From: Macrostomum hystrix
Taxonomy: Eukaryota; Animalia; Platyhelminthes
DNA: 64,000 bases
Direction of reading: 5' to 3'
Assembly: GCA_950097015.1 (NCBI GenBank)
Contig: CATNEN010000001.1
Coordinates: 19,096,001 to 19,160,000, forward strand
Shown here one piece after another: positions 21,122-60,179 of the stretch (within the stretch, counting starts at the first letter, position 1; every line of letters starts with the position of its first letter). The notes under the pieces are model-generated. The model had not been told where the DNA came from. It did not search any database and saw nothing but the letters and a program-made list of their open reading frames with translations. The position numbers and the translations under genes were made by a program.

Positions 21122-23011
21122 CAAAATGTTATTATGGCTACCTTGCACTATAATCAATTATATTTTTTATTTAAAAAATAACATGTAATAATTGCACTTA
21201 AAAAGCAGTTATGGGGCAGTAGGAACTGTCGATTAAGCAGGTAAAACCATCAAGCAGTAGCCAGAGACTGGTGCAACAGAGGCACTGATAACTCAAGTCA
21301 TTCTGACTACTGCCTGACTCGCTTCACTGCGATAGTTGCATGCATTGGGTATAAGCAATGGAACATTCATGCAGCCACCATTACACACAAAGTCACTTTC
21401 ACCAGCTCTGCATAATAGCTGCTTCAGAGCTCGCCAGCTGCAAATCCCATTTATCAGAGTTTGGAACCTCCAGCAGTACATAAAGCAGCTGATATGTACA
21501 GTTCACAGACTCTCTGTCAGCCCATAATCTGATTTGCAGCGACCTACCCTTAAATAGTAGGATTTACTCAGTGAATCATCCGGGCAAAAATACTTCACTG
21601 AGACTCCATGTGACTTTAATAATACAATTGAATTTTAAGTCTGTCCCAATTTACTCACTCATTTGAATTCTTATCAGCATCATGAGTCTGGAAGCTTGGT
21701 TCTGGCGTGCTGGTCTGCGGTTGTACATGTGCCTGCTCCTGGTTGCTCTGCGTGTAAACTATCTCCAAGCCCTCAAAGCGAAGCCGGAGCTGCTGCACAC
21801 TGCTGTACGCTTCGTAGAAATTCCGGGGATAGTCCATGACGATTTCCGACCTCGACTGCTGCGGTGTCGGCCGGTGCCGCTCAGAATTTGCCTGCTGTGA
21901 TGCCATCACGGGACAGAAATCCTCCTGGGTTGAGTCCGACGAATCAACCAGGCTCCGCAGTTCTGGCCATGATGTGGCATCACATTTCTTGGCTTCCTTG
22001 CAACTCAGGTTGACAAGTCCAGAAAACTGCTGGGCCGTTGCTCTCTGCACTTCTAGAACGTCGCCAACCGACAGCAAAATCGGAACCGGCCCGAACCGGC
22101 CAGCGGGGGAGACTGGTGGGAGGAGAATCGACCGAAGGCAGACATCGGACCCCGTGACCACGGGAGGAGGCGGAGCCGGCCTGGACTCTATCTGGAGATG
22201 AGTTTTTAGGCCTTTGCCCCACCGTCCTTAGGACCGGGTTTGGTGTGCCTGCCAACCGAGTAATCCAATTCTTTGCGCTGTACTAAACTCGGGGCTGCGA
22301 CCCCACTCTTCACAAATTCTCTTGCGCTCTGTTGCTAAGGCTTTTCCATCCCCTCGGAAAAGAGGGGTTTGAGCACATTATATAAGATGGAGCGGGGCGC
22401 GGGAGCTGCCCGGCACCCGCGGATTTTGAGAGCTAAGACTCGAGCTCCGTTTTTATTGCACTTTAATCCATAAGACATTGCTTTCCGCGTTAGTTCCTGA
22501 CTTAAACTCTGATCGCAGTAGTTTCCGATCTAGAATAGTTATAGATCATTAGCCTTACTTAAAAGAGTCGATAGTCATACTTAGTTATTGCGTTCTTGTC
22601 ATCGACACTGCGAATACACTGCTAGACTACTTACTACAGAAGACTACAGCTTGGACTTACGATCGAAAGAAGAAGAGTGAGACATCAAACCGAGAAGCAA
22701 CACACACTAAACTTAATGCGCTATAGTCTGTCTGTCTATCACTCTGTCTGTCTGTCTGGGTTATATACTTTTGTCAATAGCTGACAATAATTAACTTGAA
22801 GTACATAAATGACTTCTTTGTTCTTTGTTTCTTGAATTGCTAGCAAAGTGTGTTTATTAGCTTCCAGTACTTTTCACAAGTGGTCAACAGTAGAGTTTTA
22901 ATGCTTTCTCCTATTGAATTTCTCTATTCAAATTTCACCTTGAAAACAAGGCACAATAATTCTCATTGAGCTGTCTCAAGAGGTCTCTTAAAACCGAATT
23001 AAATCTAGACA
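21122..23011 (-). repeat. Left arm of 1890-bp inverted repeat
   Basis: Reverse complement of 24223-26112 (paired coordinates sum to 47234; mirrored ORFs in the track are identical). Confidence 0.95.
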
Positions 23012-23629
23012 TCTAGAATCATTAAATCTTGTCAAGCATTTTGCATATGGAAGAGGAATAAAATCGTTCTATTCAGTAAGTGATTACTTAATACTTACTT
23101 GCAGAACATTACATGTATAAAGTGGAAAGGCAAAAACGGGAATATTACCGTGCTTAATGTTATTATTTTATTTTTTAAATAAAAATATAATTGAATATAG
23201 CGCAAGGTAGCTATAATAACATTTTATACAGTCTCAGCAAGGGCCTGAGATAAAAGTACATTGATTAAATGACACCCACAAACTGAGTTAAGCGTACAAT
23301 GAGACTATAGACCATTCAAATAGTGACTATTCACTTCACGACTGGCTGTTTCTCCGTGGGTGTGGCGTGTCGCGATTTCGGCGGGGGGCTGAGGGCCAGT
23401 TTTAGCCGCCAGCCAATCAGAAACGAGGGCGTTTAGTTGTAAGCGGCTGAGCTGGTTTGGAATGGTAGAATATGCAATACGGCATATATCTGGAGAATTC
23501 CAGAAACCAGTAAGCCCCTTAAAACCCGTGAGTCTAGCGCAGACATGCTGAACTGGTATTTAATGTTGAAAGTTTCATACCCAAGACTAGAGAGACAGAC
23601 GATCAACAGCAACAACAGAAATATCAACA

Positions 23630-24031
23630 ATGCATATTAATAATTACTTCAACAGCGGCGGGCGAGGCGGTCGACGTCGCACCGGACCCCGGGGCGGTCC
23701 AGCCGCTGGATGTTATTTCTGCGGTGGGCCGCACCGGGTCATCCGGTGCGACCGGATGAGGGCTGTCGCCCTGGTCTGGCAGCAGGAGCAGCAGCAGCAG
23801 CCGCCACCGCAGCAGCAGCACCCGCCACCGCAGCAGCAGCAGCAGCAGCAGCCGCCACCGCAGCGGCAGCAGCAGCAGCCGGCACCGCAGCAGCAGCAGC
23901 CGCCACCGCAGCGGCAGGCGCAGAGTAACAGAAGTAACAGCATATCAGAAGCGGTTGCCCGGATGGGCCTAACGGCCGATAGAGTTCCGCCGCCTCCACC
24001 GCCGCCGCCGGCTGCCGGAAAGAAGAAATGA
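23630..24031 (+). CDS. 133-aa protein with RGG-rich N-terminus, CCHC-like zinc knuckle and polyQ/P tract
   Basis: GGRGGRRR then CYFCGGPHRVIRC (CX2CX3HX4C); GC box and CCAAT ~220 bp upstream; lies in the inverted-repeat spacer. Confidence 0.55.
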   Translation: MHINNYFNSGGRGGRRRTGPRGGPAAGCYFCGGPHRVIRCDRMRAVALVWQQEQQQQPPPQQQHPPPQQQQQQQPPPQRQQQQPAPQQQQPPPQRQAQSNRSNSISEAVARMGLTADRVPPPPPPPPAAGKKK

Positions 24032-24222
24032 AATATAAAAATACAAATATACAATTAGAATGTAAAATAATACATTTATTTGTTGAGTGATTGGAAACAA
24101 GGAACTATTGTCGTTTCTTATTTTTGCCGCTTCGTTCATATCGACATTACGTATAATTTGCCGCTTTGTTTAAAGATTCGTTCATGTCGACATTACGTAT
24201 AAGTAGTACTTGCCCTCCTCCG

Positions 24223-26112
24223 TGTCTAGATTTAATTCGGTTTTAAGAGACCTCTTGAGACAGCTCAATGAGAATTATTGTGCCTTGTTTTCAAGGTGAA
24301 ATTTGAATAGAGAAATTCAATAGGAGAAAGCATTAAAACTCTACTGTTGACCACTTGTGAAAAGTACTGGAAGCTAATAAACACACTTTGCTAGCAATTC
24401 AAGAAACAAAGAACAAAGAAGTCATTTATGTACTTCAAGTTAATTATTGTCAGCTATTGACAAAAGTATATAACCCAGACAGACAGACAGAGTGATAGAC
24501 AGACAGACTATAGCGCATTAAGTTTAGTGTGTGTTGCTTCTCGGTTTGATGTCTCACTCTTCTTCTTTCGATCGTAAGTCCAAGCTGTAGTCTTCTGTAG
24601 TAAGTAGTCTAGCAGTGTATTCGCAGTGTCGATGACAAGAACGCAATAACTAAGTATGACTATCGACTCTTTTAAGTAAGGCTAATGATCTATAACTATT
24701 CTAGATCGGAAACTACTGCGATCAGAGTTTAAGTCAGGAACTAACGCGGAAAGCAATGTCTTATGGATTAAAGTGCAATAAAAACGGAGCTCGAGTCTTA
24801 GCTCTCAAAATCCGCGGGTGCCGGGCAGCTCCCGCGCCCCGCTCCATCTTATATAATGTGCTCAAACCCCTCTTTTCCGAGGGGATGGAAAAGCCTTAGC
24901 AACAGAGCGCAAGAGAATTTGTGAAGAGTGGGGTCGCAGCCCCGAGTTTAGTACAGCGCAAAGAATTGGATTACTCGGTTGGCAGGCACACCAAACCCGG
25001 TCCTAAGGACGGTGGGGCAAAGGCCTAAAAACTCATCTCCAGATAGAGTCCAGGCCGGCTCCGCCTCCTCCCGTGGTCACGGGGTCCGATGTCTGCCTTC
25101 GGTCGATTCTCCTCCCACCAGTCTCCCCCGCTGGCCGGTTCGGGCCGGTTCCGATTTTGCTGTCGGTTGGCGACGTTCTAGAAGTGCAGAGAGCAACGGC
25201 CCAGCAGTTTTCTGGACTTGTCAACCTGAGTTGCAAGGAAGCCAAGAAATGTGATGCCACATCATGGCCAGAACTGCGGAGCCTGGTTGATTCGTCGGAC
25301 TCAACCCAGGAGGATTTCTGTCCCGTGATGGCATCACAGCAGGCAAATTCTGAGCGGCACCGGCCGACACCGCAGCAGTCGAGGTCGGAAATCGTCATGG
25401 ACTATCCCCGGAATTTCTACGAAGCGTACAGCAGTGTGCAGCAGCTCCGGCTTCGCTTTGAGGGCTTGGAGATAGTTTACACGCAGAGCAACCAGGAGCA
25501 GGCACATGTACAACCGCAGACCAGCACGCCAGAACCAAGCTTCCAGACTCATGATGCTGATAAGAATTCAAATGAGTGAGTAAATTGGGACAGACTTAAA
25601 ATTCAATTGTATTATTAAAGTCACATGGAGTCTCAGTGAAGTATTTTTGCCCGGATGATTCACTGAGTAAATCCTACTATTTAAGGGTAGGTCGCTGCAA
25701 ATCAGATTATGGGCTGACAGAGAGTCTGTGAACTGTACATATCAGCTGCTTTATGTACTGCTGGAGGTTCCAAACTCTGATAAATGGGATTTGCAGCTGG
25801 CGAGCTCTGAAGCAGCTATTATGCAGAGCTGGTGAAAGTGACTTTGTGTGTAATGGTGGCTGCATGAATGTTCCATTGCTTATACCCAATGCATGCAACT
25901 ATCGCAGTGAAGCGAGTCAGGCAGTAGTCAGAATGACTTGAGTTATCAGTGCCTCTGTTGCACCAGTCTCTGGCTACTGCTTGATGGTTTTACCTGCTTA
26001 ATCGACAGTTCCTACTGCCCCATAACTGCTTTTTAAGTGCAATTATTACATGTTATTTTTTAAATAAAAAATATAATTGATTATAGTGCAAGGTAGCCAT
26101 AATAACATTTTG
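24223..26112 (+). repeat. Right arm of 1890-bp inverted repeat
   Basis: Reverse complement of 21122-23011; contains an unassigned 168-codon ORF (25073-25579). Confidence 0.95.
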
Positions 26113-27282: not shown

Positions 27283-27886
27283 TATAAACGCTAATAAGGA
27301 CATTGATCTGCCATGCATATAATTGTATAAAGCAGGCAGTCTATTCTCAAATGCACATCTATCTCCATTTGTCCTAGTTGTTCCCTGCACAGCCAACTAA
27401 TGAGCAGAAAGAAAGCGCATCTAAAAAACAAGCAATTAAAAACGAAAACGCGAAACACTGTTTAGGAGCCCCTGACAGACAATGAAACTGTGAGCTATAT
27501 AATAATAATAAAACGGAATTGAACGGAAAAGCTGATAAATGAACGAATTTAATAGTGTCATTAGTCCCACGAATAAAAACAGCTAACGTAATTACACTGC
27601 CAGTCCGCTGGATAGTGCAAACATGCACGGTAAGATTGGCAGCGCACGGTAATTAGCAGATTTTATTCGCGCTCAACGAGTCACCTCACAAAAGCTCCCG
27701 AACCAAATGATAGCTTTTCGTGAAAATCGACCATATCGATCAAAGCTTTTCGCCTTTTTCAAAGAACTAACCTTCTTAGCCGTACAGCACCCCTAAAGTC
27801 TTCCGTGCAGGGCAATTGTTTACTAACAATTACTAACATACTAACTAAGTTACTCGAAAACAACTACTGACTGACTAACTACTGGC

Positions 27887-28708
27887 ATGGAGTCCGTTTG
27901 TCGACGTTTTCCTTCGACGCCGATAGACACCATCAGAACCTGCATGTACGACGGTGACGTCCAGGTTGGATATGCGCCGTTTGCCCTGGCCAACTGCGCA
28001 GACATAGTCTACGAGCAGCTCATGGCTGAGCTACTGCCCAAGGCCATCCGGCACCGACCTAGCGAGAGAAGGCTTGTCCATTGGATTGGCCCCGCATACT
28101 CCTACTCAGGAGTCGCTCTAGCTGCGAACAACGACTGGCACCCGACGCTGCTAGCGATTCGCGACTACCTGGTGGATGAGTCGGGCATTGACTTTCCAAT
28201 ATTCAACAGCTGTCTGGTCAACTTTTATCAAGACGCTGATGACAATATTCCTTACCACTCTGACGATGAGCCGGAGCTAGGGACAAATCCGACCATCGCC
28301 ACGGTGTCATTCGGCGCCTCCAGGACGTTCTGCGTGCGGGACAAGCGCACCCATAACGTCATTTATAAGTTCGACACGCTGCCTGGCTCGTTGATCACCA
28401 TGGCCGGAGCCTGCCAGCGCAAGATGCAACACGCCGTGCCAGCGGTGCATGCGCAGCAGGGAGCCCGAGTGTCGCTAACATTCCGTGTCACCGCGGAGCT
28501 AAAGGACAACCGTAACCGTAAGCGCCAAGCAGAAGAGCCTCTAGGCGTCAAGAGTCCCCTAGCAAAGGCACCGGCTGAAGCGACGTCTGACACCTCAGAC
28601 ACCTCAGACACCGTGGCAGCGGCGGCGGCGGCGGCGGCGGTGGTGGTAGAGGCAGCACCAGAGGTCTCAACGGTTCCGAAGGCGCAGGCACAGCCTGGTC
28701 CTTGGTGA
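27887..28708 (+). CDS. AlkB-family 2OG-Fe(II) dioxygenase (ALKBH2/3-like), N-terminal part of LINE ORF1
   Basis: YSYSG, FNSCLVNFY, HSD (HxD), QHAVP (distal His), RVSLTFR (RxxxxxR). Confidence 0.9.
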   Translation: MESVCRRFPSTPIDTIRTCMYDGDVQVGYAPFALANCADIVYEQLMAELLPKAIRHRPSERRLVHWIGPAYSYSGVALAANNDWHPTLLAIRDYLVDESGIDFPIFNSCLVNFYQDADDNIPYHSDDEPELGTNPTIATVSFGASRTFCVRDKRTHNVIYKFDTLPGSLITMAGACQRKMQHAVPAVHAQQGARVSLTFRVTAELKDNRNRKRQAEEPLGVKSPLAKAPAEATSDTSDTSDTVAAAAAAAAVVVEAAPEVSTVPKAQAQPGPW

Positions 28709-31118
28709 CTTAAATGCCAGGCACGGCTTCCTGGGGGGAGAAAGTAGGAGTAATAGAGCGGGTCAGCAACTCTACGACTGGCTCTGCTCAGATGAACCAA
28801 CCCCAACCGTTCTAAACCAGGTAGGGGACTTCACAAGAATTGCAAGCAAGGGGGAGTGATCTCACGGAACGTGCTGGATCTTGGACTAGCCTTAGAGGCA
28901 CTCGTCCCCCTCATCACCAACTTCTGCGTAGGGCAGGACCTGGATAGTGACCACCTTCCAATCATAGTCACCTTGGGACTTAAGTCTCCCCTTCTGAATG
29001 ATCAAGATGCCCCCAGAAATTATACTAAAGCAAACTGGGATGCCTTCAAATCCCACATTAGCCAAAAGCTCCTGGATCCCTGGGTCCCTCCCTTGGAAAC
29101 CCCGCAGGATCTAGATGCTGAGGCAGAATATCTAACTGAGGCCATCCAGGGAGCGATTGCGTATGCAGTTCCTCTGAGGAAACGGATCTCACCCCTACCA
29201 CCCTACATCGTGGACAAAATCAAGGAGAGGAGGAAGCTCCGCAGACTCTCACAGTTCTAGAGAGGATTCGTACCGGATCAGTGCAAATAGGCTGGCCAAA
29301 CAAATCCGCAAAGATATCGAAAATTTCAAACAGCGTAAGCACACTAAAATGTGCGAGAAACTGGTTGAAAAAAGTGAAAATCAAGAAGTCAAAAACTTTT
29401 GGCGGGATGTAAAAGTTCTAATGGGACAGAAGAAGGGTAACACCATCCCCACCCTGACCTCTGGGTCCATAAAGGCCTTTACCGACCAAGACAAGGCAAA
29501 TCTTCTTGCGGAGTCGCTGGATGCCAAGATGCGCCCTGTCCCGACCACCAGCCTTGATTATGCTGAGACGGTTAACCAATACTCCCAGCTCAGGCTGCTC
29601 TATCCCTCTAAGCCGGACAGCAGGATTCCACTGCTCCCCTTAGAGGCACCAATCAAGTTCGAGGACGTCACTTGGGAGCTTGCCCACCTGAGGGAGGATA
29701 GTGCCCCAGGGCTCGACAAGATCCCCAACAATGCCCTCAAACGTGGTCTCGAACACGTCTCAGTGACCCGTATAACCAGTCTGTTCAACGCCTGTTTTGA
29801 ACAAGGCCACTTTCCCAGCCCCTGGAAAAAAGCAGTAGTAGTGATGCTACCAAAGCCTAACAAACCCCGAGATGACCCAAACTCATACAGACCAATCAGC
29901 CTAACATCCTGCCTAGGCAAAGTTTTTGAAAAAATCATTGCGCGGAGGCTAAAAAGCCACCTGGAATCCACGGGCGCACTGGGTGCAGATCAATGCGCCT
30001 ACAGGAAAAATCACTCCACTTATGACAATCTGTGCCGCTTGGTGCAGAATATCATGGTGGCCAAACACAAGAAAAAGAAATTATCCGCAGTCCTGCTAGA
30101 TGTCGAAGCAGCCTTTGACTCCGTCTGGCAGGACGCACTGCGGTACCAAATGATCCAGGCAAACCTCCCGGGGCGGGTTCTTAGTATCTGCTCCAGCTAC
30201 CTTCGGGACAGGTTGGTCCTAGTGAGGGTTAACTTAGCCCTCAGCCAGTCGTTTAAACTCAAGGCTGGCGTCCCCCAGGGTGGAGTTATCAGCCCACTCC
30301 TCTATCTGCTCTTTGTGAGCACCATGCCAACCCCAAAAACACCTGGAGTAGAACGAAGCCAGTTCGCCGACGACATGGCAATCTGGGCGTCGGCGGAAGG
30401 TTTCGTTAAGCTCAGGAAAAACCTGCAGCGCTACCTGGATGAAGTCCATAAATGGTGCGGCGTGCAGGGCATCAAAATCAATGCCGGAAAAAGCCAGGCC
30501 ATAACCTTCAATTGCAACAAACCCAGGGTAGGGTGCCAGGACAAACGGCCCCAACTCCACCTGGGAACTGTGCAAATACAAAACTGTGATGTAGTTAAGT
30601 TCCTGGGCATAAAGCTGGACACTAACCTGAGACTTAATGAACACGTAAAATCACAAATCAACACTTGCAGAGCGCAGGTGATGTGCCTTAGCAAGATTGC
30701 AAAAAAGACCAATCTGAAGAGCGACACTCTGAAAATGCTATACCGGGCTTACGTGGAGAGCACCATGACATATGGAGCACCCATTCTAACAATCCTAAGC
30801 CCGGGAAACAAGAGTGACCTTCAGAAAATTCAAAACATTGCCCTCAGAATCTTCTATGGGATCCCATCCTACATCTCCACCAGCTACTTGCATGAGCATG
30901 CCCAGATGCCCCTGGTAGCGAACAGGATTGATGATCTGGGGACCCGCTGGCTCCTTAAAGCCTGCAAGGCTAAAATCCACACCCTAGACAGGCGCCCTGA
31001 TCCGATTAGGATAAAACCGGGGTCCAGAATGCCTGTTCTACATCACCTCTGGGAAATCCTGGAGAGGAGAATAGCTGCTGCTACACCAGCGCCCAGGGGT
31101 CCAGGCAGGACAAACTAA
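28692..31118 (+). pseudogene. LINE ORF2 (C-terminal half of APE endonuclease plus reverse transcriptase), 5'-deleted with two frameshifts
   Basis: LVLGDLNARH (from ~28695), VLDL, SDHLPI, then APGLDKI, YRPISL, LDVEAAFDSV, GVPQGGVISPLLY, FADD, KFLGI; frame changes near 28855 and 29260. Confidence 0.92.
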
Positions 31119-33734
31119 AAGAGGCAGCTGTTGCTGCAACAGCAACCAAAAAACAATCTCCAGCACCCAACATATGCAGCAGTTTATCTCATGTTGTGCT
31201 TGCTCTTTAGTTTGGCAAAAAAGTGGAAAAAATAACAAGTCCCGGCACTAGACACTAAGCCATCCAGGTATTCCTTTGGGTCATTTGGCAAGTTTCTTAC
31301 CAGCTTACTGCAAGTAGGTGATATTGGGGTGAGAAGTGTTTTCTAGGTTTGAGTTACGAAGATTTCAAGCTTGAACTAGATTGGGGTGGGCGTATGGGCT
31401 TGGGCTTGTTGATTTATTATTTGGCTGAAGCATAACTTGGTATAAAGGGCAGTTGTCACTGTCACTTTAGAGGGCAGGGGAGGATGTTCTCTAAGTGATT
31501 TAGATAGAAATTGAATAGGCTTAGAACCGCTGGGGGGTCATATTTTTTTGGCAAGAGTAGGCTATAGAAATTAGGCGGGGTGGTGGGTGTCTGACAGTTT
31601 ACCTAACAATGGGCCGGAACTGGAAAGGTAAAGTACAATTTTTTTAGGGTTCAGGCTAGTTTATGGGCACGGGACAGTATTGGCTCAGCATTGCAAGGCC
31701 CTGCCAGTCCAATTCGCATCACTTTAAGAGTTCAATGATCATTAGATTATTTTACTAAAGATTTGCAATGCCCTATGCCCTCCGATACGGAGTCGTTTTT
31801 TGCGGACACAAACCAAACCAAACCAATTCACCAATGTAAACCCTAGACTGCTCCCCTTGTGTGTGATGCGCCAGGACTATCAATCTAGCTTTTTTTCTAT
31901 CAATTCTTCTGTCAAACCAATTTACCAATGTAAATCTGTCAAACCAATTTACCAATGTAAACCCTAGGCTGCTCCCCTTGTGTGATGCGCCAGGACTACC
32001 AATCTAGCTACAAACTCTCAAATAAATTTTTTCCATCAATTTTTCTGTAACCCTCCAATGCGAAAAAACGCACTACAATCTCAATCTACCTATAACTCAC
32101 CTAGGCTGCTCCCCTTGCGATGCGCCAAAAGCTATCAATCTAATTACTAAGCTCTAATCTTTCTGCTAAATTACAAATGCGAAAATGCGATACCCTAACC
32201 AATTTGGGGGTTGGCTAGGCTTTGCAAATTCATATGTACTATGCGCTTGTCTTAGATTTCCTCTTTTATCCTGATGTCCTAATCTTTGTGAGGACCCATT
32301 TTTTATCCCAATCATGCGCACTCAATATACCAAAAAATATATTCCATTCGTTTTTTTTATCGTGTAAAATATTTTTCGTCAATCATATCCAATAAATATA
32401 CAGTACCTACAGCGGAAGAGCCCCTCCCAGGGCTGACCCGCGGGTCTTAGACCCAAACCTCTTAACAACAACGAGTCCGCCGCGAGAAGGCTGACACATG
32501 GGCTCATGAAATTAGCGCTTTAAAATGTAGCGCTTCACAGCACATTGTATTGCATGTGCAAAGTGACCTGTAAAAATTTTGCTAGTTGAACGAATTGTAT
32601 CCAAAATTTGGGCTTACTGGTATTCATTTTAGCGCTCTTAAACTTAACGCTTCACAGCACCCACACAAAAGTAGGTGCAGAGTGACTTGCTGTAATTGGC
32701 TCTGTAGATATACCAATTTTTCCATGGGATAGGGGTGGTATGGTATTTTGTTCCAACAGGAAGACCTCAGGTAGCAAATTTTATGGGAGACGAGGTGGGA
32801 ATTTTCGGGTTATATCGGGTCAACTTGGTAGCAGATTTACGCAAGACAATAGGCGGTAAGGGTTTGACGCAATAAGGGACTCTTGGAGGAATCACAAATG
32901 GTAATGGGTTTCGACAGATTTTAGCTGGAACTCGATGAGTTTCTGGCGTAGGTTTAGGACTTTTAGGAGCACCTTCAGAAGAGTTGCAGCGCTCTTCCTG
33001 CTGCTGCTGTTCTGCGGGAAGTTTTGTTGACGCACTCGTCTCTTGGCTAGTTGCTGATGTAATTTGTACCTCGCCGATATCCTTGTACATCTCAACCAGG
33101 ATAGATAGCTGACTAGCAGCGAACTCAAGTTCCATGTATTGGAGTGGATGCTTTTCTTCTGTAGTAAGTTTGTCAATATACTTTCCTAATTTTCAGATTT
33201 TTGCTCAGCTTTTTTCGACTCATTATTCGGTCTTTTCGGAGAGCCATTTGGGCCTCATTGAAACGCAAACATAGCAATTTTCGTATAGCGCTTATATTTC
33301 AGTGCGCAGCAGTTCAGTTCTGCTCCATTTAGCTTACTATTTAGATTTAATTATTCGGAAGTCAGATTAAGACAAAAAATGAACATAAAGGCCTTCCTAA
33401 AATCACTTTCATCTTCTCTCGTTTATAACAACGTAAACAGTGTATTTAAATTCACGCGTATTTAAATTCACGCGCTAGCTCTGCAGCTATTTTTAGAACT
33501 GGGAAGACCACGCTTCCTCTATGGCTTTGCTCGCAAGCACTCATTTTCTCTCGTTATTGATATTGCATTAGAGCAGCAGCAGTGTACAGTATACTGAATG
33601 TATTGTTTCGTTCGAGATCGATTGACTGACTGATTGACACTGATTGACACAGACTCTATGTCTTATGACATTCAATAATTTGATTTAACTTTGACTGGCG
33701 GCGGCAGCGACGACAAGCAAAAAACACGGAAAGG

Positions 33735-38225: not shown

Positions 38226-41088
38226 ATGACAGACAACGAGTCGTGCTGCATCTTCTGTGGCGACGGCAGACCGCAGACGCATCCGAAGCGCCACTTCCTG
38301 AGGAGGCACGCGGAGGAGGCTGTGCGCCAATTCTGACTCGATGATGCCCCAGTCAAGGTGCGGCCGTCCGAGGCATCTTGGGCGGCGGCGTTAGCCAAGC
38401 AGCGTGCCCAGATGGTCTGGCTCTGCCTGACGTGCAGCACCCATACGCGCAGCTCAGCCAACACTGAGCATGTACACGCATGCCCAGCCTGCGGCAAGGT
38501 GCTGCGTAGGACGGCAAGGCAGCACAGGTGTCCAGCAGTGCCAGCTGTTGTCGCTACCGTTTCTGTGGACCAACAGCAGCCACCGCCTCCGCAGCAGATG
38601 CCACCACCGCATCCGCAGCAGATGCCACCACCGCCTCCGCAGCTGCCTTCCGAGGCAGAACCAGCTGAATACGAGGCTGGGTCTCTGTTGGCCGAGCTCT
38701 ACAGCATCGCCGCGCCGTCAGTTGACGGTCGACAGTCAGCGGCCAGTGCTCGGCTGTCGTCAGCCAGCCGTCCAGCCGTCCGGCGACGCCAATTTGACCC
38801 GACTGCGCCGCTGCTGCTGATGTCCTCACAGGATGACGCTGACGATGGAGATGACGATGTCGGCTTGCAGGAGCTACTGCCCGGAACCAGCATCAGAATG
38901 CGGACTCTGTCGACGGTCCATACGGTGGCAGCAGAGTCTTCCTCTTCGGCTGCCTGTCTGCAGTTGGCGGTGCAGGCCACTAAGTCGGCGCTTAATCGTC
39001 CCAGCACGTCATCGGCTGTGGTGTCGGCTGCACAGAGGCCGCTAGTGAAGCTGGCAGCTACTCCGCCGAGGCAGCGTCGAGCAGCTGCAGCAAGGTGGGC
39101 TGCGTTGAAGATAAAACTGGCCAGTGCCGAATTCGACCGGCTTCAAAAGTCCATATTCGGAGCAGAACTGCAGCAGGAAGCGTCGACAGCCGATCAGAAG
39201 CAGCAGCAACAGCGTCGCGGTCCGCGCTGTCGACACTTTCGCACGTCGCCACCTGCGAAGCCCGTGCCACCAGAGCTGCTGCAGCTGTTGGGTGACCGGC
39301 CCAGCATCTCCGCAACGGTGGAACGCCTGCGGGAGCTATGGTGGAGGGACCCATCGCGGGCCAGGATTGCGGCCAACTTGTGCCACCAGCAGCGTTGGCG
39401 GGACATTAGCAGGTCCGTGAGCTCGACGCTTCTACGCACCTGGCAGCGAGCGGGGATCTCGCTTGCAGACCTGCTGCTTCAGCCGGACAGGGTGCAGGAC
39501 TGCTTCAGCGCTGAAACAGTCGGTGACGCCATGCAGCTGGCCCAGTCGACTGCTGCTCGCAAGTGCCAGGAGCTTGTCAGCATCTGCCGCTGCATGGAGG
39601 GCTGGCTACGCGTGAGGGGCCTGCGAGGCGCCAATGCCATCATGGCCGCCGTTGGCTTGCGCGAAGCCGAGCTGTTCTGCAGCATCGACTCACCCTTGCC
39701 TGACACCGAGCGCCCTGCTATTGAGGACGTTGACTCTGTCGGCAGTGGCGTCTGCTGGAGAATGCAGTTGGCGCAGAAGGCCAACAACCCGCTGGCGGCT
39801 GAGCAGGCTCTCATCGCCCGCCTTAGCAGCGTGGTGCAGCAGGCTCGTGGCGAGTTCGGCAATGTCCGAGCCATACAGCAGGTAGGCTATAGCTGCACAG
39901 CAGCTGCATTAATGACAGTTAGTTCTATTTGGTTTCGTGCTGCTATCTACTAGAAGTAAACGCAACCACATTTATACTATGCAGGCCGTCTACAAGCTTG
40001 GCCACAATGAGCGGCAGGTGGCCTTCATGGACACTTACATCAACGTGGACGAGGTTGATGCCGTGTTCGCCCGCCGTGATCGTTTTTTTGCCATGCTACA
40101 AAGGCACAGCTGGACTTTGCTGCCAGTCGACGGCGAATGGGGCATGCAGGCAGCAGGTGTGGTCGCTGATGGCATCGCTGATGTCACCAAAGACAACGGC
40201 GAAGCAGATGATGGTGCCTTCAGTCGCCGGATGGTTTGTCTGCGGAGGATTGTGCAGGAGATGCTGTTCTACTGCAGCATTGAGCAGCCCCTGCGACTCC
40301 TGCCGTGGATCTACATCCGTCGGCGACACCTGGTCGACCGTTCGGTTCGGCGAAACGCGTCGGCCGACCAAAAACAGCTGTTCCGCCAACACACGCAAAG
40401 TGCAGATGGGGAGAGCGGGCCGTCCGCTGCCGATCTGGCTGGGCACTCGCATCTCGTCCTGCCGCTGCGTGAAGTGCCGCACAAGGTCGGACACTCCGGC
40501 GACCCAGCCAGGATGGTGCTGCCGGATCTATTCTGCGAGGCCTTGCTGCGCCTGCACGACGAATATATCGTGCCGTCGCTTGCTGCTCGCGGCATCGAGC
40601 AACCGGAGTCGCCGACCGTCTTCATTGATGTGTTCGGCGGTGTGTACAGCCAGTCGGCAATGAGCCGCATGATCAGCGCAGGCGGGCAGCGAGTACTGGG
40701 TCGGCACTATGTGGCCACGCACTGGCGTCGCACCCTCTGTGCCGTAGTGCTCATGATGGAGCCGGAGCAGCTGGATATGTTCGCCAGAGCGCACGGCACA
40801 TCTGCAGCTGTCATCCGGTACAATTATGGGCACAATGCCCAGATGGCCACCGAGATGGGCACAGTAATTCGCAGCCGCGATATTGTCCGCCGGTTTGTGG
40901 TGCCATCAGGTGACGCAGAGATGCGACCAATAGTTAGGCCGCCGACCCAGGGACTCATCAGCAGCCTGGCTGGTGGAAGTGGGGAGGTGGCGGCGAGCAC
41001 CCAACGAGCCGACGCAGTCCTGCACGGTAGACCGGTGGCCGGAAAGCGACGGCGGCTGCACTCAGTGGCGGAGCATAATTTTGATTGA
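38226..41088 (+). pseudogene. Zinc-finger plus tyrosine recombinase gene (exons 38226-39881 and 39985-41088), one premature TGA at 38334
   Basis: N-terminal CxxC/H clusters; phase-0 GTAGGC..TGCAG intron joins the two track ORFs in frame; C-terminal R (QPLR), K (HKVG), HxxR (HWRR), GTS-x7-Y arrangement of the phage-integrase fold. Confidence 0.75.
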
Positions 41089-43154: not shown

Positions 43155-45947
43155 TCATTCAACCTGGGCGTTGGCGGCGGCGGCTCCGAACATCGGCTGC
43201 TGGCGGCACCCCCCCTGGCAGGCCTGGATGTCGTGGTCGACCTCGACGCATGTATTGCCCTCGTTGCGCAGGCGCCGCTGCACGTCAGCCGGGTAGTCGT
43301 CAGGTGAGGCGTGGCCGGCCATGATCACCAGCCGTTGGCCCCAGTCCAGGTAGACGTGCGCCTGGTGCTTCGCATTGACCAGGAAGCTGTTGCCGTTCAG
43401 CAGGCGCAACAGCGTGGTCTCCAGGTCGCCGCCCTCGAACATGTGCGGCCGCACCTCGTCCAGAAAGATGACGGAGTGGCGCGCGGTGTCCAGGCCGTCG
43501 AACATGAAGTCATTGCCACCGAAGCGCTTGATGACCGGACAGAAGACGCGCTCCTGGCCCAGGTGGCGCTCGACGGCGGTGGTCTTGCCGACTCCCGACG
43601 GCCCGTAAAGGTACACAACGCCCGACTGGTGGCGAAGGGCTGTGCAGACGGCCTCTCGGAGCGGGCACAGGTTCCTAATGTCGGCAGCCTCGGTGGAACA
43701 TGCGGAACAGCCGGCGAGCTGCTCCCTGCGAATCCGGCGCTGGCGCTGCACGTCTCTAAAGACCCCCAGCAACGTGGCGCGCATCTGCTGGTGGGCCAAC
43801 AAGAAGCCGTCAGTCTGGTCGGGCAGGTTGGCAGTCAGCGGGTAGGACAGCGCCCACCGAGTCGCTTGCACCAGCATGCTGCACTGCGTGGCGCCGATCC
43901 CGATCAGCAGCGGGTAGCCGTCGTGCTGCGTCAGGCTCCGCAGCACACTGTCTGGCGAGCGGACGCCGCACAGCGTCAGGGTGGTCCGGTCGGGCACCAC
44001 AAAGCAGCGTCCCTCGTCTCGGCTAGGCAGCAGGCTGAACAGCAGCTCGTACAAATGCCAGCCGGCCGCGTTGGTCTCCAGGCGCACGAAGCCGGACAGA
44101 GTGCGGTGTGGCCGATACTCGCTGTGCTGCTGCTGCTGCTGCTGTTGCTCCATCTCGTCGACGGAGAGCGGGTCAGCGACTAGCCGCCGGTCGCAGAACT
44201 CATCCATGCCGACGCAGAGGCCCGGGCTGGACGCCAGGACGAGCTCGACACAGTGTGCCTCCAGAGCCTCGCCCAGATATACCTTGGCACGCCCTGTTTA
44301 TGTAGGCAGCATGGAAACAGTGGATGCCAGCAGCTGGTTATATGATTCAGAGCTTATGAACAAAGCAAGTGACTCACCGACGAAGCGCACCTTGTCGATG
44401 TGGAAGACGTGCAAATAGCGGCGCCCGGTCAGAATGCCGCTGTCCTCGGGCAGTCGCTCCGCAGGAGCAGCACCGGTCATTGCGAGCGGCCGGCTGACTG
44501 AGCGCGTCACAGTGAACTGCTGCTGTGCTGCTGCCGCATTAAGCAGCGGATTTTGGCCCAGCCGTCGCACCCCTCGGCCGCCTCGTTGTCCTCTGGCGCC
44601 GCCGACCCCGCTCCCGCTCGCCTCGCTGTCCCCCTGCTGTTACTGGAGGAAGTGAATAAGCTGTGCCGCAGACGCCGGCGGACTGTAGCTGAAGGGCACC
44701 AGCGAGGGAGGACGCTCGAGCTGCACCTGCTCTTGTTGCTGCAGCGGCTGTGGTGTTAATATGCGCCACCACTCCTCGCCGACAGGGACGGACTGGCTGG
44801 CCTCATTCATAGCGGCCACCACGGCTGCTGCGAATGCCGCTGTGCCAGGCGACACCACGTAGGCCGTCGTCTCATCTTCCGGACGCTGAGACGGTGTGGT
44901 CTTGGCGACTGCTAATCGTCGGCCATCGGGCTGCGAGTCTGGCACCATGGCGCCCACAATGGAGCAGTCGGCAGCAGCAGCAACAGCGGGAGCAGTCGTT
45001 TCGAGCCGCTGGAAACGGAATCTCCGCCTCCCTGGCTGCTGTTGTTGGTCGGCCGCGACTTGAGGCGGTTTCGGCACCGTGCTGGCGGCCTCCTCCATTT
45101 CCGCATCAGCGCCCGACGGTGGGGGATCTGCAGCGACTGACAGCGCAACGGTGGACGCCTCGTAGTCCAGCAGTGCCTGCAGAGCATCGCGGTCGTCGCT
45201 ATCCATCGCCGCCTCCTGCTCGTTAGGCTCCGATGGCTCCGCCTTTGTGCGAGTTGCCGCTGTCGGCCTGCCGTTATCGGCGCGCTCGTCGTCGACGTCC
45301 TCAATCTCGATGACGACGGGGCTGCGAGGCTGTAGGGCTGCCGTGGACATGTCGGGCGCATCAGACGCCGCCCCGTCGCCATCGCCGCAGTTGGCAGGAG
45401 CATGTCGCCTGACGTGCCTGATCGCTGCCGGCGATGACCATCTGCTGGTGGCCTTCTTGGCACTCCGGTGCTGATCTCCGAGCCAAGCCAGCATGCTCCC
45501 TTTTGGCGCAGTCGAGGCTGAGGCTGCCATCGCGTGGGAGATGGGCGCGTAGACGGCCGATATACTGGCAGGCGGTGGCTGCTGATTGCCTGTGGACATC
45601 TGGTCACTGGCAGGCTGCTGCTCTCCAGTGTTTAGGCGCATGACACCGCTCAATGGCAGCAGGCTGAAGTCGTCGGCGTCGCTGCTGATGTTAGCCACCG
45701 CTGCTGTCTGCACTGGGGTGAAAGTATATATACGCTTTGGGCCTGGCGTAGATTCTGCGGCTGCTGCATTGACAATCCGACGTTGAGAGGGAGCGCTCTT
45801 TCTTTTTCGCTGTGATGGTGGCTGGCGAGTTGATGACGCTACCGGCCCGGCGGAGTTACTATCTTGGGCAACTCTCTCAAACTCGTCCAGCGCGGCCGCA
45901 ATTCGCTCATCGTCGCTGTCGCAGCCGGTTGAAAAGTTGAACGACAT
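43155..45947 (-). pseudogene. CRESS-Rep-like protein with SF3 helicase (exons 45947-44378 and 44293-43155), long disordered N-terminus, one premature TAA at 44640-44642
   Basis: Walker A GPSGVGKT, Walker B IFLDE, B' VNAK, motif C region VIMAGH, Arg finger QRRL; GTGAGT..ACAG 84-bp intron keeps frame; Rep-like N-domain with degenerate motifs II and III. Confidence 0.7.
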
Positions 45948-48373: not shown

Positions 48374-48831
48374 CAAGCAATGAAAAAAATAAGAACGAGA
48401 AACGCTGTTTAGGAGCCCCTCCATTTATTTGACAGACAATGAAACTGTGAGCTATATAATAATAATAAAACGGAATTGAACGGAAAAGCTGATAAATGAA
48501 CGAATTTAATAGTGTCATTAGTCCCACGAATAAAAACAGCTAACGTAATTACACTGCCAGTCCGCTGGATAGTGCAAACATGCACGGTAATTAGCAGATT
48601 TTATTCGCGCTCAACGAGTCCGCCGCGAGAAGGCTGACACATGGGCTCATGAAATTAGCGCTTTAAAATGTAGCGCTTCACAGCACATTGAATTGCATGT
48701 GCAAAGTGACCTGTATAATTTTGCTAGTTGAAAGAAATATGTGTCCAAACTTTGGGCTTACTGGTATTAATTTTAGCGCTCTTAAACTTAACGCTTCACA
48801 GCACCCACACAAAAGTAGGTGCAGAGTGACT
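48374..48831. repeat. ~460-bp dispersed repeat; uninterrupted copy of the sequence split by the LINE (27430-27682 plus 32478-32688)
   Basis: Colinear identity from GACAGACAATGAAACTGTGAGC through CAACGAGTC to GTAGGTGCAGAGTGACTT. Confidence 0.9.
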
Positions 48832-48902
48832 TTACAAGGCAGCGCTTGACTTCAATTAAAAACACAAGTAACGGTGGAATCATCAGTACACTGGTTGGAT
48901 AC

Positions 48903-51283
48903 TTAATCGGAGTCGCTATCAGAAGACTCCGATAGATATTTTACAGCATCAGTCACGCTTTTACTTGCAACATCTTCAAGCAGTCTTCTAAACAATTCCC
49001 GAAATTGAGCGGCTAAGCCCGGCTGATTCGCTAAGTCATCACAGAGGCTCTGCAAATTAACCTGAAGGTCAACCCACTCATCTGAAATAATATGCGCTTC
49101 TTTTAGGCGTTTATATTTGTTACTGACGTCTATAGCCCGCTGACGAAATCGGATGGAAAGGTCGGTTCCAGACAAATGTTCATATTTCGCACTACGCGGT
49201 TTTTTATATTCATCGAAAGAAGCTCTGTCTTCAATTGGAAGACGAGCGTAGAGTTTTTTCATGTCGGATGCATAACTTTTAACCTTTCGCAAGCACATTC
49301 TGGTTTGACTTTGGCCAACTGACTTACCAACCTGTTTACTCCAATGATCTCTGTGCACTGCAAGAGCGCGTAGCTCACATAGGATATCATCTTCCGAGTT
49401 GTGTACAGCTACTCGGAGGGAATCTTCATACCATTGGGAGCCTAAATCCAAAATTTCATCCTCAGAGATGACCAGACTGTCATTTCGGACCCCCGAGTGC
49501 TGCAAAATCGCAGACTGGCTTTGTAGCTCTTTTAGTTCACTTAGAATGCTTTTTCCCGCACCTACCATAAGCTTAATACGTTGTGTAAACCACCCAGAAG
49601 CGCTAAGAAGCTGTTGTGCATTAAAGAAGTATAGAATATGCGCCATGTATTGTGCTCGTCGGTCTTTTCGCATGTACTTTAAAAACTTACCGAACGGCCT
49701 GAGTTGAGACCAGGCTCGCTCAGTATTCTCTCCATCGCATAGACCTGCGCCTGGAGTAACGCGAACAGAAAACTTTTTTTGACAACTGGGCAGGTGACCA
49801 AGAGCATGAAAAGCGTTTATTGCACAGCTACTCGCTTGAATGTTGGCACCAGACTTCGCAATAGCGGACGTAACCCGGCTGGATACGCGACAGCCTGTGA
49901 ATTGGGATAAAGAGTAAGTCATGTTGTCATATAACTGTACACAAGCAACAGTATTTCATAGATTGTATGCATTTTATAAAATAATAATAAACTTACCCAC
50001 GTCATATACGACAAGTAATTCCTTAGACACTTTGACGTTTCGCAGAAAGTGTTCAAGGCACTGTTCCAGGTAGCAAAACTTTTCTCCACCAGTTGTGATA
50101 TTTGAGCCACACAAAAGGCGATTGTGACGACAGAATAATCCAAAGAAACCCGTGACATCATGTCTCTGCTCACGGCTTAATGGTTCATGAGCACCGGCCT
50201 TCCAATTAGGACAATTCTGTTCCTCTGCTCGATTTTTTGGCACATCCGCTTTAATATCTACATAGACAAGCGGCGTAGGTAATGGACGACCATCTGATGG
50301 TATTTCCAGTTGTGTACGCCCCTTGGCTTTAAAGCGCTGCCAACCAAATAGAGCATCTGCACAGACAACAGTTTTGCGCACAGCGTGATTATCTGGACAG
50401 AGAAGACAATTATTTGGCCATTTTGCTGAGGCCATTTGCAGGTGGCGAAACCGCAGCAAAACATCATGTCGTTGAATGCGTTGATAAGTGCTTTTTACAA
50501 GAGCCAAATTATATGTACCTTGTCCCAGAGTTGGCCCAATGAGCAGTGTACTGACCGCTCTGTGAACAGGCAACTGCCCAGTCATACACAAACTGTCTAG
50601 CAGGGACAAAAAGGTAAAAGAAAAGAATGCATACCCATCTGAATCAGGCTTTGACCCTTCGCAACAAGGGAAGAACCCTTGAGAAAGGAGTGCACCAATA
50701 AGATCACAGGAGTCGCAGGTAATAAAAATGACCTTTACGCTTCCAGCCAGATCTATAAGGTCAACTTTTGTAGCCGCACAGACATTCAGATTCAATTTAC
50801 TAGAAGCGCAGCAAAACATTTCAAAAGCATCGTGAGTAGCATCCAGTTCCTGAAACATTAGACTCTCCTTATTCCATATGAGAAACTTGTGGGCTGAAAA
50901 CTTTTTATGCGTCTCATTCTTACAGCTGGCACATAAGCTAAGTCGACAAGTAACACATCGATATACACCTTCGTGCTCATAGCAAGAGGAACACAGATTT
51001 AAGAGAAAATGCTTCTCGTAACTACCTCTGTATTTCTCAGCAAAGCTGTCAAAATCTACCCATTCAACATCTTCTACTGTAGGAGCAAAAGACTCAGGCA
51101 TACCGACATCATTCTCGGTGCTAGCTTCCACTGGAACAGTTGAGTAGTTTCAGACACAGGACGCAGAGATGTTGAGCCTCGATTTCGGCCGCTAATGATT
51201 GTCTTAATCTTTCTGGGTCGCCCACGACAGCCAGTTTGCAGTGTAGCTTTGACAACACGCTTCAGTTCGATGCCGCGATACAT
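48903..51283 (-). CDS. KDZ (Kyakuja-Dileera-Zisupton) transposase with N-terminal CxC cysteine cluster; intron 49895-49996; probable frameshift near 51145
   Basis: CSSC..RCVTC..LCASC..H..H..W, GFFP, CADALFG, TGFFGLFCRH, GEKFCY, spliced YDVG|C, FHALGH..CQ, GAGLCDGENTERAWS. Confidence 0.85.
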
Positions 51284-51704: not shown

Positions 51705-52370
51705 TGATGTGCTGTAGACTGCTGAGCAGCCTCCAGGCAATCTGTGAGTCAGGCTGTTCTAGGTCTGTGGGAGGGCTAGGGTTGGTAGTTAGTGTTTCCC
51801 GTGCACTGTCACATCCGCTCGCCACCCCCTCCGCTCTCTCTCTCTCTCTTTCCAGCTCTGTCTGCGCACTGAGTCACATTGCACACCATGGTGCAATCGC
51901 TTAAGTTCGGAAGAAGACTGGCAGAACAACGCTCAAATGCTCCTACTATAAGTAGAGCACAGTCCGACGAATCCTTGAGATGGGGTTGTTATCATGGTAG
52001 CACGTTTTCTGTATGAATATGGCACGTTTCTTGTCTCCAGTTCTCCCGCTCGGAACAGTTTGTGATTACTTTCTGTGTCCATTCTTTTGGCTCTCTAAAG
52101 ATCTTAGACAATTCTTGTTGGTCTAGGTCACACACTGCATTTAGAAGCTTGGTGTGTCACCCGATCTAGCATAAGATCTGTGAGTTTAGCTAGAACGTGG
52201 ACTAGGTAGAAGAAGTCCCGAGAGAACTTAGCTGTCTAAGCCTGACTACCGGATTGTTCCTCTGCTAGGAAGCATCTGAGTGTGAGGCCGGATACTCTCT
52301 CTCTCGGAATCTAGTTCCTGTCTTGGTTATTTTTACCAATTGTGTGTGCCACGCTACCACAGGTACAACA
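51705..52370 (+). repeat. 5' LTR
   Basis: TGATGTGCTG..GGTACAACA; appears identical by eye to 60180-60845. Confidence 0.97.
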
Positions 52371-52371
52371 T

Positions 52372-52392
52372 TGGTGGCAAAGCGGTGTGATT
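52372..52392 (+). promoter_or_regulatory. PBS, imperfect tRNA-Leu type
   Basis: TGGTGGCAAAGCGGTGTGATT versus TGGTGGCAGCGGTGGGATT (2-nt insertion, one mismatch). Confidence 0.65.
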
Positions 52393-52432
52393 CGAGTTAG
52401 CCTTTTACTCATTCACTGCGGATACGAACGCC

Positions 52433-53722
52433 ATGTCCCAAGAGGAATTGGATTCGGAGAGAGAGGAGAGGCAGCAGGTAGCCCGGAGCAAGGAGTCTCG
52501 CGGTGGCTGTGCGCTGCAGGAAGCTGCGGGCAGGAGTCGGTGGAACGGCCGCGGCAACGACTGTGTCGGCGACGGCGAGGACGGCGAGAGCGACTTCGGC
52601 GACGACGACCAGTCCGGCGGCGAGGACGACGACCGGGGCGCAGCGGCAGCGGCAGCAAGGCGACGACGACCGAGGCTGGACGACAGGGCGACGGCTGACC
52701 TGGTGTACCGGATGCTCAACCTGATGGAGAAGCAGGTGGAACAACAACAAGGTAGGACGGCGAAGATTGCCAAGTTTTCTCGGGGTCAGGACGTGCATCT
52801 GTGGGTGGACGCGTTTGAAGCGTATTGCGCCCGGGCTGCGATTCGCAGCTCGGAGACACGCAAGGCCCTTCTACTCGACCACCTCGATGTACAGTGCCTG
52901 AATGCCGTCCTCAGGATGAAGCTGCCCGAAGAGCTCACGTATGCCCAGTTCAAGGAGCGTATTGTGGAGCGATTCGCGCCGCTGAGTAGCCCTGAGGAGT
53001 ACCGAGACGAGTTCCGCAATCGCTATCAGAAGAAAGCGGAAACGCTTGATGACTATGCTGATGCGTTGCAGGGACTCGGCGAGCAGGCCTATACCAACCT
53101 TCGCCAAAGAGATTTGGACTATGAGTTGGTCGACCAGTTTATTAAGGGAGTTCGGACTTCGGTTGAGAACCGCAAGCACCTGTTGCGGACTCGCCCTAGG
53201 ACACTCCTGGAAGCTAGGCGAGAGCTAAAGCGCCTAGAGGTGGTCGACGAGGCAGTCCAGAGGGCGAAGGATGGGCCGGCTCGGATGGTGCACGGCGAAG
53301 ACGAGGACCTGAATGCGCGGCCGCCACCGCAAGGTGTTACCGCTGCGCTGAAGGGACTCGAATCGCTGATGACCAAGATGGTCGAGGTCCAGGGTCAGCA
53401 GCTGCAGCATCAGCAGAAGATGCAGGAGATGCTGGTCCAGGCGCTCAGCCGACCACAAGGAGCCGTGCAGCAGGAAGGACCGGCGCCGCCAAGAGGGGCA
53501 TGCTTTGGTTGCGGGAAGTTCGGACACCTGAGGCGTGATTGCCCGACGAGGCCACCCAAGCCGCGTTATGAGCACCACGCTCAGGGGTACCCGAGAGAGC
53601 AACGGCAAGAGCCCAGGCAGCAGTCCGAGCTGCAGGCCCAAGGCACTCAGACGTCGGGAAACGGGACGGCGAGGAGCACGGACGGCAGTGCCCCTCGCAG
53701 TCCAGTTCCTGGACGGGCCTGA
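52433..53722 (+). CDS. gag: Gag with CCHC zinc knuckle
   Basis: KFSRG..WVDAFEAY, QKKAETLDDYADAL, CFGCGKFGHLRRDC. Confidence 0.92.
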   Translation: MSQEELDSEREERQQVARSKESRGGCALQEAAGRSRWNGRGNDCVGDGEDGESDFGDDDQSGGEDDDRGAAAAAARRRRPRLDDRATADLVYRMLNLMEKQVEQQQGRTAKIAKFSRGQDVHLWVDAFEAYCARAAIRSSETRKALLLDHLDVQCLNAVLRMKLPEELTYAQFKERIVERFAPLSSPEEYRDEFRNRYQKKAETLDDYADALQGLGEQAYTNLRQRDLDYELVDQFIKGVRTSVENRKHLLRTRPRTLLEARRELKRLEVVDEAVQRAKDGPARMVHGEDEDLNARPPPQGVTAALKGLESLMTKMVEVQGQQLQHQQKMQEMLVQALSRPQGAVQQEGPAPPRGACFGCGKFGHLRRDCPTRPPKPRYEHHAQGYPREQRQEPRQQSELQAQGTQTSGNGTARSTDGSAPRSPVPGRA

Positions 53723-58773: not shown

Positions 58774-58833
58774 ATTTCCTCTTCGAAGCGAGGTGAAAGG
58801 CAAATCTTAAAGATAATCAAAGAAAATAAGAAG

Positions 58834-59751: not shown

Positions 59752-60179
59752 TGTGCATGATTATCCAGTAGCGCCACAATTCGTGCATGCGCCGATTTTT
59801 AGTTCCCGCGCATATGCTATTATTAGTTTGTTTGTTGATTTTTGTACGATCTATCTGTTTTAGTCTTGTAAGGTCCTTACTAGTTTCTGTTGTTTAGGCG
59901 CCATGAGCATTTAATTTTCACATTGATGTTCTTGGCCTACGGTTGCCGTTGTATTTTTGTCTTATATATTTGTTTATTCAGCAGTTAATGCGCCATGTAC
60001 GATTGTTGATTTATGCGCCATGGATACATTTGATTTGATGGCAGTGCCTGTTTATGGCCGATTCGTTCAGTGTGACAGTTGTGCGTAAATACAAGGACGA
60101 GAAGGTGCTTACCTGTTTTTGGTTTAAGTGCGGCTGACGGCCAGCCAGTGTTGACCGTCATCCTTTAGCTGGAGGAGAA

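Follow-up and report, generated by a model that had tools for sequence, protein, structure and literature searches.

In Jockey/I-group long interspersed nuclear elements (LINEs), the type I protein of the first open reading frame (ORF1) has an RNA recognition motif (RRM) immediately ahead of a CCHC knuckle, as set out by Metcalfe and Casane (2014, PMC4120745) in the text available. A LINE located at 27683–32468 of a 64,000 nt stretch of Macrostomum hystrix DNA (contig CATNEN010000001.1, positions 19,096,001–19,160,000 of the forward strand; hereafter the window) resembles these elements in its ORF2, which is of the APE endonuclease and reverse transcriptase (RT) type and has Jockey/I-group neighbours, and in its ORF1 relatives, whose predicted RRM-like units are followed at once by as many as three CCHC knuckles. 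It differs in that the ORF1 of its family begins with an ALKBH3-like enzyme, and the window copy itself is without the RRM and CCHC part. Enzyme capture of the same kind is represented by a viral SF1 helicase in a Jockey ORF1 (PMC5563155) and by esterase ORF1s (PMC4120745); the domains named in the available text of those two papers do not include a nucleic-acid demethylase.

AlkB-family dioxygenases are also known from other selfish elements. The Ty3/Gypsy retrotransposon of Phalaenopsis carries one, described in the available part of that report as a separate extra ORF of a long terminal repeat (LTR) element, recently captured and encoding an ALKBH5-like N6-methyladenosine (m6A) demethylase (PMC9289625). 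The M. hystrix family is instead non-LTR, has the domain fused to ORF1, is of the ALKBH3 type and shows deep divergence among its members. The best functional analogue is the AlkB of plant RNA viruses, in which a selfish RNA replicon likewise has an AlkB of its own (PMC2553587, as excerpted); there the domain belongs to a replicase polyprotein that copies RNA to RNA, whereas here it would sit on the RNA-packaging protein of a reverse-transcribing element. Fold, ligands and lid residues are shared with human ALKBH3 and ALKBH2 (PDB 8jnk, 2iuw, 3rzh; PMC2965238, in part), but the window domain is encoded by a mobile element, has a shortened F1 hairpin and falls in its own clade apart from animal ALKBH3. 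A literature search of titles and the beginnings of abstracts, with Repbase, Dfam and subscription journals outside its scope, found no AlkB in a LINE, and the terms AlkB, 2OG, oxygenase and demethylase have zero occurrences in the main texts (supplements aside) of PMC4120745, PMC5203782, PMC13343379 and PMC6431247.

The LINE insertion and its internal deletion

The element is bracketed exactly by a 9 bp target-site duplication (TSD), CAACGAGTC, and, as expected of a LINE, it has a simple-repeat 3′ tail and no LTRs. Its features are as follows (UTR, untranslated region).

27674–27682 (+): 5′ copy of the TSD (CAACGAGTC); empty site at 48612–48620; joint 27673 to 32469, with 9 shared letters
27683–27886 (+): 5′ UTR, 204 nt, with an ACTAAC-rich low-complexity stretch ahead of the ATG; no Rfam match
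27887–28510 (+): predicted ALKBH3-like Fe(II)/2-oxoglutarate dioxygenase domain, start of ORF1 (Pfam, PDB, model, alignment)
28511–28708 (+): Ala-rich ORF1 linker, cut at 28685, then 7 out-of-frame endonuclease-derived codons and a stop
28685–28686 (no strand): internal deletion junction (X1 bridging contig, RT relatives, ORF1 C-half profile)
28686–29248 (+): APE-type endonuclease, C-half only (SDH motif; GDLN at 28704), plus linker; first frame break near 28849
29249–31118 (+): ORF2 reverse transcriptase (FADD at 30363–30374), following a second frame break near 29248
31119–32468 (+): 3′ UTR, 1350 nt, ending in a short (AAC)n tail
32469–32477 (+): 3′ copy of the TSD, the same 9-mer as the 5′ copy
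48374–48832 (+): uninterrupted copy of the ~460 bp target repeat, adjoining the 3′ end of a KDZ transposase gene

The target is a dispersed repeat of ~460 bp, with a depth in sequencing run X1 of 2083 compared to 73 where coverage of the element is thinnest. The LINE flanks align to the uninterrupted copy with 86% identity over 266 columns (48374–48620) and 95% over 222 columns (48612–48832), and the TSD 9-mer occurs there once, at 48612–48620, for which the chance at a fixed site is 3.6e-6. Contigs from three of four sequencing runs also contain the empty, joined form (27673 to 32469), the 9 letters fitting either side; in run X9, coverage here is of the target repeat only. Because part of the TSD coincides with the short (AAC)n tail, the duplication may really be 5–9 bp long. 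Both the TSD and the in-window empty site reported in the initial annotation were thus recovered, and its estimate that the AlkB ORF starts about 200 bp inside the 5′ TSD agrees with the measured 204 nt. As it had also proposed, AlkB lies within the duplicated target bounds and so transposed together with the LINE.

The transposase gene next to the target repeat (KDZ, for Kyakuja-Dileera-Zisupton; 48903–51101, minus strand) consists of two ORFs and has a B-box-like N-terminal part. Carriage of AlkB as cargo of this neighbouring element was considered and rejected, because the domain is within the LINE TSD and missing from the empty site.

The RT claimed previously is present, with a match to PF00078 at E 1e-34. 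Searching with this RT gave 427 matches among long proteins; the 120 listed all have PF00078 and most have an endonuclease. The nearest among those listed are 26–34% identical over long stretches, many carry RNase H and some are named jockey or BS. The I clade in the strict sense is defined by RNase H behind the RT. No RNase H was found in the window ORF2 by Pfam at E 0.1, which places it outside that clade, and no C-terminal CCHC was found in ORF2. The endonuclease remnant matches PF14529 below threshold (E 0.002). Although the window ORF2 is split into three stop-free frame pieces, X1 contigs carry 1 and 2 extra bases at the two breaks, which fits one open ORF2 frame in the family; the breaks may be assembly errors or changes private to the window.

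While the LINE with an AlkB-led ORF1 is real, the initial annotation overlooked an internal deletion in this copy, at 28685|28686. The junction breaks ORF1 after 266 codons, and endonuclease sequence begins in another frame within the last codons of the AlkB ORF. What is missing is the RRM-like and CCHC part of ORF1 and ~135 N-terminal residues of the endonuclease, roughly 1.4–2.3 kb as estimated from relatives. The linker stub extends 66 residues beyond a TFR motif, compared to 96–191 before the RRM-like part in the relatives, and the GDxN motif has a median position of residue 141 in the RT relatives with a scorable motif pair (57 of 120). None of the 120 RT relatives listed matches upstream of 28680, and a six-frame search of the window with a hidden Markov model (HMM) of the relatives' ORF1 C-half gave no match (best E 0.48). 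The CCHC knuckles were lost from this copy through the deletion and, in place of a whole APE endonuclease ahead of the RT, there is a C-half from GDLN onwards.

In X1, a 60 nt contig (28656–28715, depth 73) bridges the junction. This is the piece expected from 31-mers across 28685|28686 if both sides branch, indicating a deletion junction beyond which other copies likely continue. A second X1 contig enters 28686 from other sequence, with the 30 letters shown being stop-free in the endonuclease frame, and the depth sums fit with either X1 copy as the carrier of the deletion (73.0 and 74.4 vs 73.2). Intact copies of the family very probably continue from AlkB through the RRM/CCHC part to a whole endonuclease. 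The window copy, having lost the RNA-binding half of ORF1 and part of the endonuclease, is likely non-autonomous and probably dead; its product could be at most a free AlkB with a linker stub, and it could move only with a helper element.

Contig depth, which is only a rough measure of copy number, rises in X1 from 147 over AlkB (27981–28606; twice that of the junction) to 201 over the endonuclease remnant, 260–510 over the RT and more than 700 over the 3′ UTR, the gradient expected of 5′-truncated LINE copies. In X3 and X5 contigs the 3′ ends sit in other flanks, as in a LINE family with variable 5′ truncation. One X3 copy starts at 27981 in an AT-rich flank and is 98.7% identical to the window but without AlkB codons 94–122, and X1 contigs break at the same place. 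In one X1 contig, 27683–27783 is preceded by 1123 nt unlike the window flank, representing either a flank or a longer 5′ end. These findings imply that AlkB-bearing sequence occurs in at least two contexts besides that of the window. Among the X1 contigs listed, none spans the 5′ junction of the window insertion itself, nor would the bin depth accommodate one; assembly clean-up by the 2083-deep repeat, or absence of the insertion from the sample, would both fit.

The first 40–60 nt of the element (27683–27744) are ~85% similar to a short repeat that is dispersed among differing flanks in X1, X3 and X5, and could be a remnant of the terminus of another element. Loose ends at 27686 in X3 and X5 were considered as full-length copies elsewhere but dropped, being 40–60 bp, ~85% matches to this same repeat.

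ORF1 relatives and the origin of the AlkB domain

In the initial homolog search, bacterial AlkBs dominated beyond two matches to Macrostomum lignano. A search of 1.84 billion protein representatives gave 7 matches at E ≤ 1e-30, all longer than stand-alone AlkB, comprising five annotated M. lignano and two Logan proteins. Six relatives (P0123, P0134, P0135, P0141, P0142 and P0280) have a common layout of AlkB, a low-complexity linker, a P-[IV]-[IVL]-F-[ED] block and CCHC, with three knuckles in four of the aligned proteins and one in the other two. The predicted structure of P0141 includes two beta-alpha-beta-beta-alpha-beta (RRM-like) units at residues 385–561, with a predicted local distance difference test score (pLDDT) mostly of 60–87. 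Foldseek with the full P0141 model returned only AlkB-family chains, and the relatives have no Pfam RRM match. An HMM of their C-half matched 10 of the 120 LINE RT proteins listed, upstream of the RT (E 9e-22 to 1.5e-9), and several of these 10 bear PRE_C2HC or jockey/BS names. Atlas features of the ORF1 C-half pointed to a PRE_C2HC 'transposon X-element' cluster (0.91); those of P0123 gave no usable match. By sequence and predicted fold, the C-half of the relatives is probably a type I ORF1 as defined in the available text of PMC4120745.

AlkB identity among the relatives (35–68%) tracks that of the C-half (27–65%) over 15 pairs, as expected if the two parts were inherited together. The view that AlkB forms the start of ORF1 is borne out by its nearest relatives, which are fusions of AlkB with an ORF1 of RRM-like units and CCHC, and the sequence comparisons support AlkB as the N-terminal enzyme domain of ORF1. 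In a metagenome scan keyed on AlkB core motifs, none of 80 loci carried an RT or the ORF1 C-half.

An alternative would be that the locus is a one-off template-switch chimera between a 5′-truncated LINE and a host ALKBH3 mRNA, the case that the initial annotation had named as contrary to its own. The AlkB ORF does abut a truncated endonuclease, as it would in such a chimera. However, the window AlkB is 58% identical to the ORF1 fusion P0123, compared to 37% and 39% to the M. lignano host-type proteins P0144 and P0231 (and 38% to a vertebrate ALKBH3-like protein). It is sister to P0123 with a support of 100 in a quick tree (76 rows) and 100/99 in a careful tree (42 rows), and the clade of fusions (98 and 98/95, respectively) excludes P0144 and P0231. 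The careful tree was built without P0121 (long branch), P0152 (fragment), the near-duplicates P0133, P0136, P0001 and P0002, and most bacterial rows. Approximately unbiased (AU) tests, made on 30 rows with a simpler model, reject grouping of the window AlkB with P0144 (p 0.017) or P0231 (p 6e-5). These host ALKBH3 references are M. lignano genes standing in for those of the window species, which leaves the chimera some room. Against it, an ORF1-type Ala-rich linker follows AlkB, the domain occurs at twice the depth of the junction, and a second copy starts at 27981 in another flank. A one-off chimera is largely refuted and must be regarded as highly improbable.

AlkB is also found in other layouts. 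The Logan protein P0204 (1787 aa) has an N-terminal ALKBH3-like domain, zinc-finger-like motifs and an RT matched best in the PDB by R2 proteins, and its C-terminal part resembles, by a motif, a restriction-like endonuclease; AlkB would thus occur in a second type of non-LTR element. The AU test did not reject (p-AU 0.29) a common origin for the AlkB of P0204 and that of the ORF1 clade. The P0121 cluster (ENA/Logan; 595 aa, contigs up to 6.2 kb) joins AlkB to a GDSL/SGNH esterase, as in an esterase-type ORF1, and has a long branch in the AlkB tree. P0281 and P0137 (Logan; 1012 and 569 aa) have AlkB in mid-protein and a further C-terminal domain, and are sister to the type I ORF1 AlkB clade (98/95). 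An Atlas cluster comprises 163 eukaryotic PF13532 proteins with a 703 aa representative and is labelled Ctenophora on the strength of two members. Tentatively, and with the balance a little on the other side, LINEs may have captured AlkB repeatedly and kept it (in type I ORF1, in the esterase-type ORF1 of P0121 and in the single-ORF, R2-like P0204), in which case methyl damage or host-placed 1-methyladenosine (m1A) and 3-methylcytidine (m3C) would be a real, selected-against barrier to which these elements bring their own repair enzyme.

The enzyme domain and its possible role

The ORF at 27887–28708 matches PF13532 (E 4e-23), and its best PDB match is human ALKBH3 (E 2e-28). The Fe(II)/2-oxoglutarate ligand set was found complete, as claimed initially (H124, D126, H182, N112, Y114, R194 and R200), along with lid residues R62, Y71 and Y73; the roles of these residues are assigned from the alignment with ALKBH3 and from general knowledge of the family. 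All seven ligand residues, together with R62 and Y73, are invariant in 7 of 7 family alignment rows. The predicted structure, from a 100-row alignment, has a pLDDT of 91.8 and superimposes on ALKBH3 with a Z score of 27.5 and a root-mean-square deviation of 1.5 Å over 185 residues, the best matches being ALKBH3 complexes with single-stranded DNA (ssDNA). Scores are lower for ALKBH2 (Z 22–25), FTO (17.1–17.7) and ALKBH5 (17.0), and neither ALKBH5 nor FTO is among the 16 PDB sequence matches. Ligands, lid residues and fold agree with the ALKBH2/ALKBH3 subfamily, supporting an enzyme predicted to be of the m1A/m3C type and not of the m6A-eraser type. The domain of the window family is probably an active demethylase.

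This assignment bears on whether AlkB serves as a counter-defence eraser of regulatory marks, either m6A on RNA or host silencing marks. The orchid Gypsy AlkB, which was shown to be an m6A demethylase (PMC9289625, in the text available), offers a precedent, but the window domain is of the ALKBH2/3 type in sequence and fold (Z 22–27.5), well above its scores for ALKBH5 and FTO. Moreover, for human L1, m6A helps retrotransposition and ALKBH5 suppresses it, according to the part of PMC7873242 available. A mark eraser is accordingly a distinctly unlikely role.

The explanation we favour, with modest confidence, is repair of the template by ORF1-borne AlkB. Both m1A and m3C are methylated at Watson-Crick positions, and these modifications in the element's RNA are, by a somewhat better than even estimate, the relevant substrate. 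In intact members, the AlkB domain would ride on the RNA-binding ORF1 protein into the ribonucleoprotein particle of the element. There the protein would coat the RNA of its own element, as happens in other LINEs, and AlkB would oxidatively remove m1A and m3C from that RNA before reverse transcription. RRM and CCHC domains bind and package element RNA (PMC4120745, in part), which would keep an N-terminal AlkB attached to it. Viral AlkBs repair m1A and m3C, with RNA preferred (PMC2553587), ALKBH3 prefers ssDNA and RNA (PMC2965238), and in the OTTR method the R2-type RT is impeded by m1A, a block that AlkB relieves (PMC12140624), each as stated in the excerpts available.

Alternatively, AlkB of the same element could act on DNA, repairing 1-methyladenine and 3-methylcytosine in single-stranded cDNA or in the opened target during target-primed reverse transcription. 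ALKBH3 acts on ssDNA too (PMC2965238, in part), its ssDNA complexes head the structural matches, and P0204 has AlkB and RT on one chain. In the clade of the window, however, the fusion partner of AlkB is the RNA-binding part of ORF1 and not ORF2, and the alignment gives no indication of an ALKBH2-type hydrophobic hairpin tip suited to duplex DNA. Repair of DNA is thus an unlikely function.

Several considerations weigh against template repair by an active enzyme. Such a domain is absent from most LINEs, which copy themselves all the same. Activity is predicted from sequence and modelling, the relatives are linked to ORF2 through the window and the type of C-half that they carry, and the continuation of ORF1 in intact X1 copies was drawn from contig geometry, not read as one intact element. 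The F1 hairpin is ~5 residues shorter than that of ALKBH3 and is modelled as a loop, so the full hairpin of the subfamily is not present. Position 196 is Ser in the window protein, where at least 90% of 100 aligned rows have Asn. Both the short F1 loop and the Ser196 trait recur in P0123; P0132, P0134 and P0141 have a longer F1 hairpin. The X3 copy has lost its 29 AlkB codons (94–122) in frame. Deletion of F1 abolished ALKBH3 activity in the work available from PMC2965238.

The F1 effect and the in-frame loss would both suit a domain that is a nucleic-acid or methyl-base binding module, or a decaying enzyme, instead of a working demethylase. Nevertheless, the H-x-D...H and NxY residues and both arginines are invariant in 7 of 7 rows at 35–68% identity, which is hard to explain without catalysis and makes a non-catalytic role quite unlikely.

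What AlkB-type RNA repair is for biologically is still under debate, plant viruses being the strongest case. A LINE family with a predicted ALKBH3-like domain on its RNA-packaging protein (35–68% identity) would provide an animal system for testing template repair and adds an enzyme class to the catalogue of LINE ORF1s. ORF1-borne AlkB may also suggest a way to help R2- or LINE-based RTs read damaged or modified RNA. The window copy, though broken, is valuable because its TSD, empty site and RT connect the AlkB-ORF1 family with a genuine LINE insertion.

Minor features of the window

A scan of 27300–32800 against Rfam gave 0 matches. The 3′ UTR of the LINE contains imperfect repeats of ~120 bp (31819–32155). 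Upstream of the element, a perfect 1890 bp inverted repeat (21122–26112) surrounds a 1211 bp spacer and represents either a fold-back element or an assembly artefact; a short Gln/Pro-rich ORF in the spacer (23630–24031) has one knuckle-like motif. A Gypsy-type LTR element occupies 51705–60845 (plus strand), with 666 bp LTRs that are 100% identical and open gag (52433–53722) and pol (53824–58773) genes. Its third ORF (58834–59751, 305 aa) has no Pfam match.

Long GC-rich ORFs are found between 38412 and 45947, where two plus-strand ORFs without a Pfam match converge on a P-loop ATPase ORF (43155–44207, minus strand). The second of the plus-strand ORFs (39979–41088) has a C-terminal pattern that may be reminiscent of tyrosine recombinases, and this cluster is possibly an undescribed DNA element.

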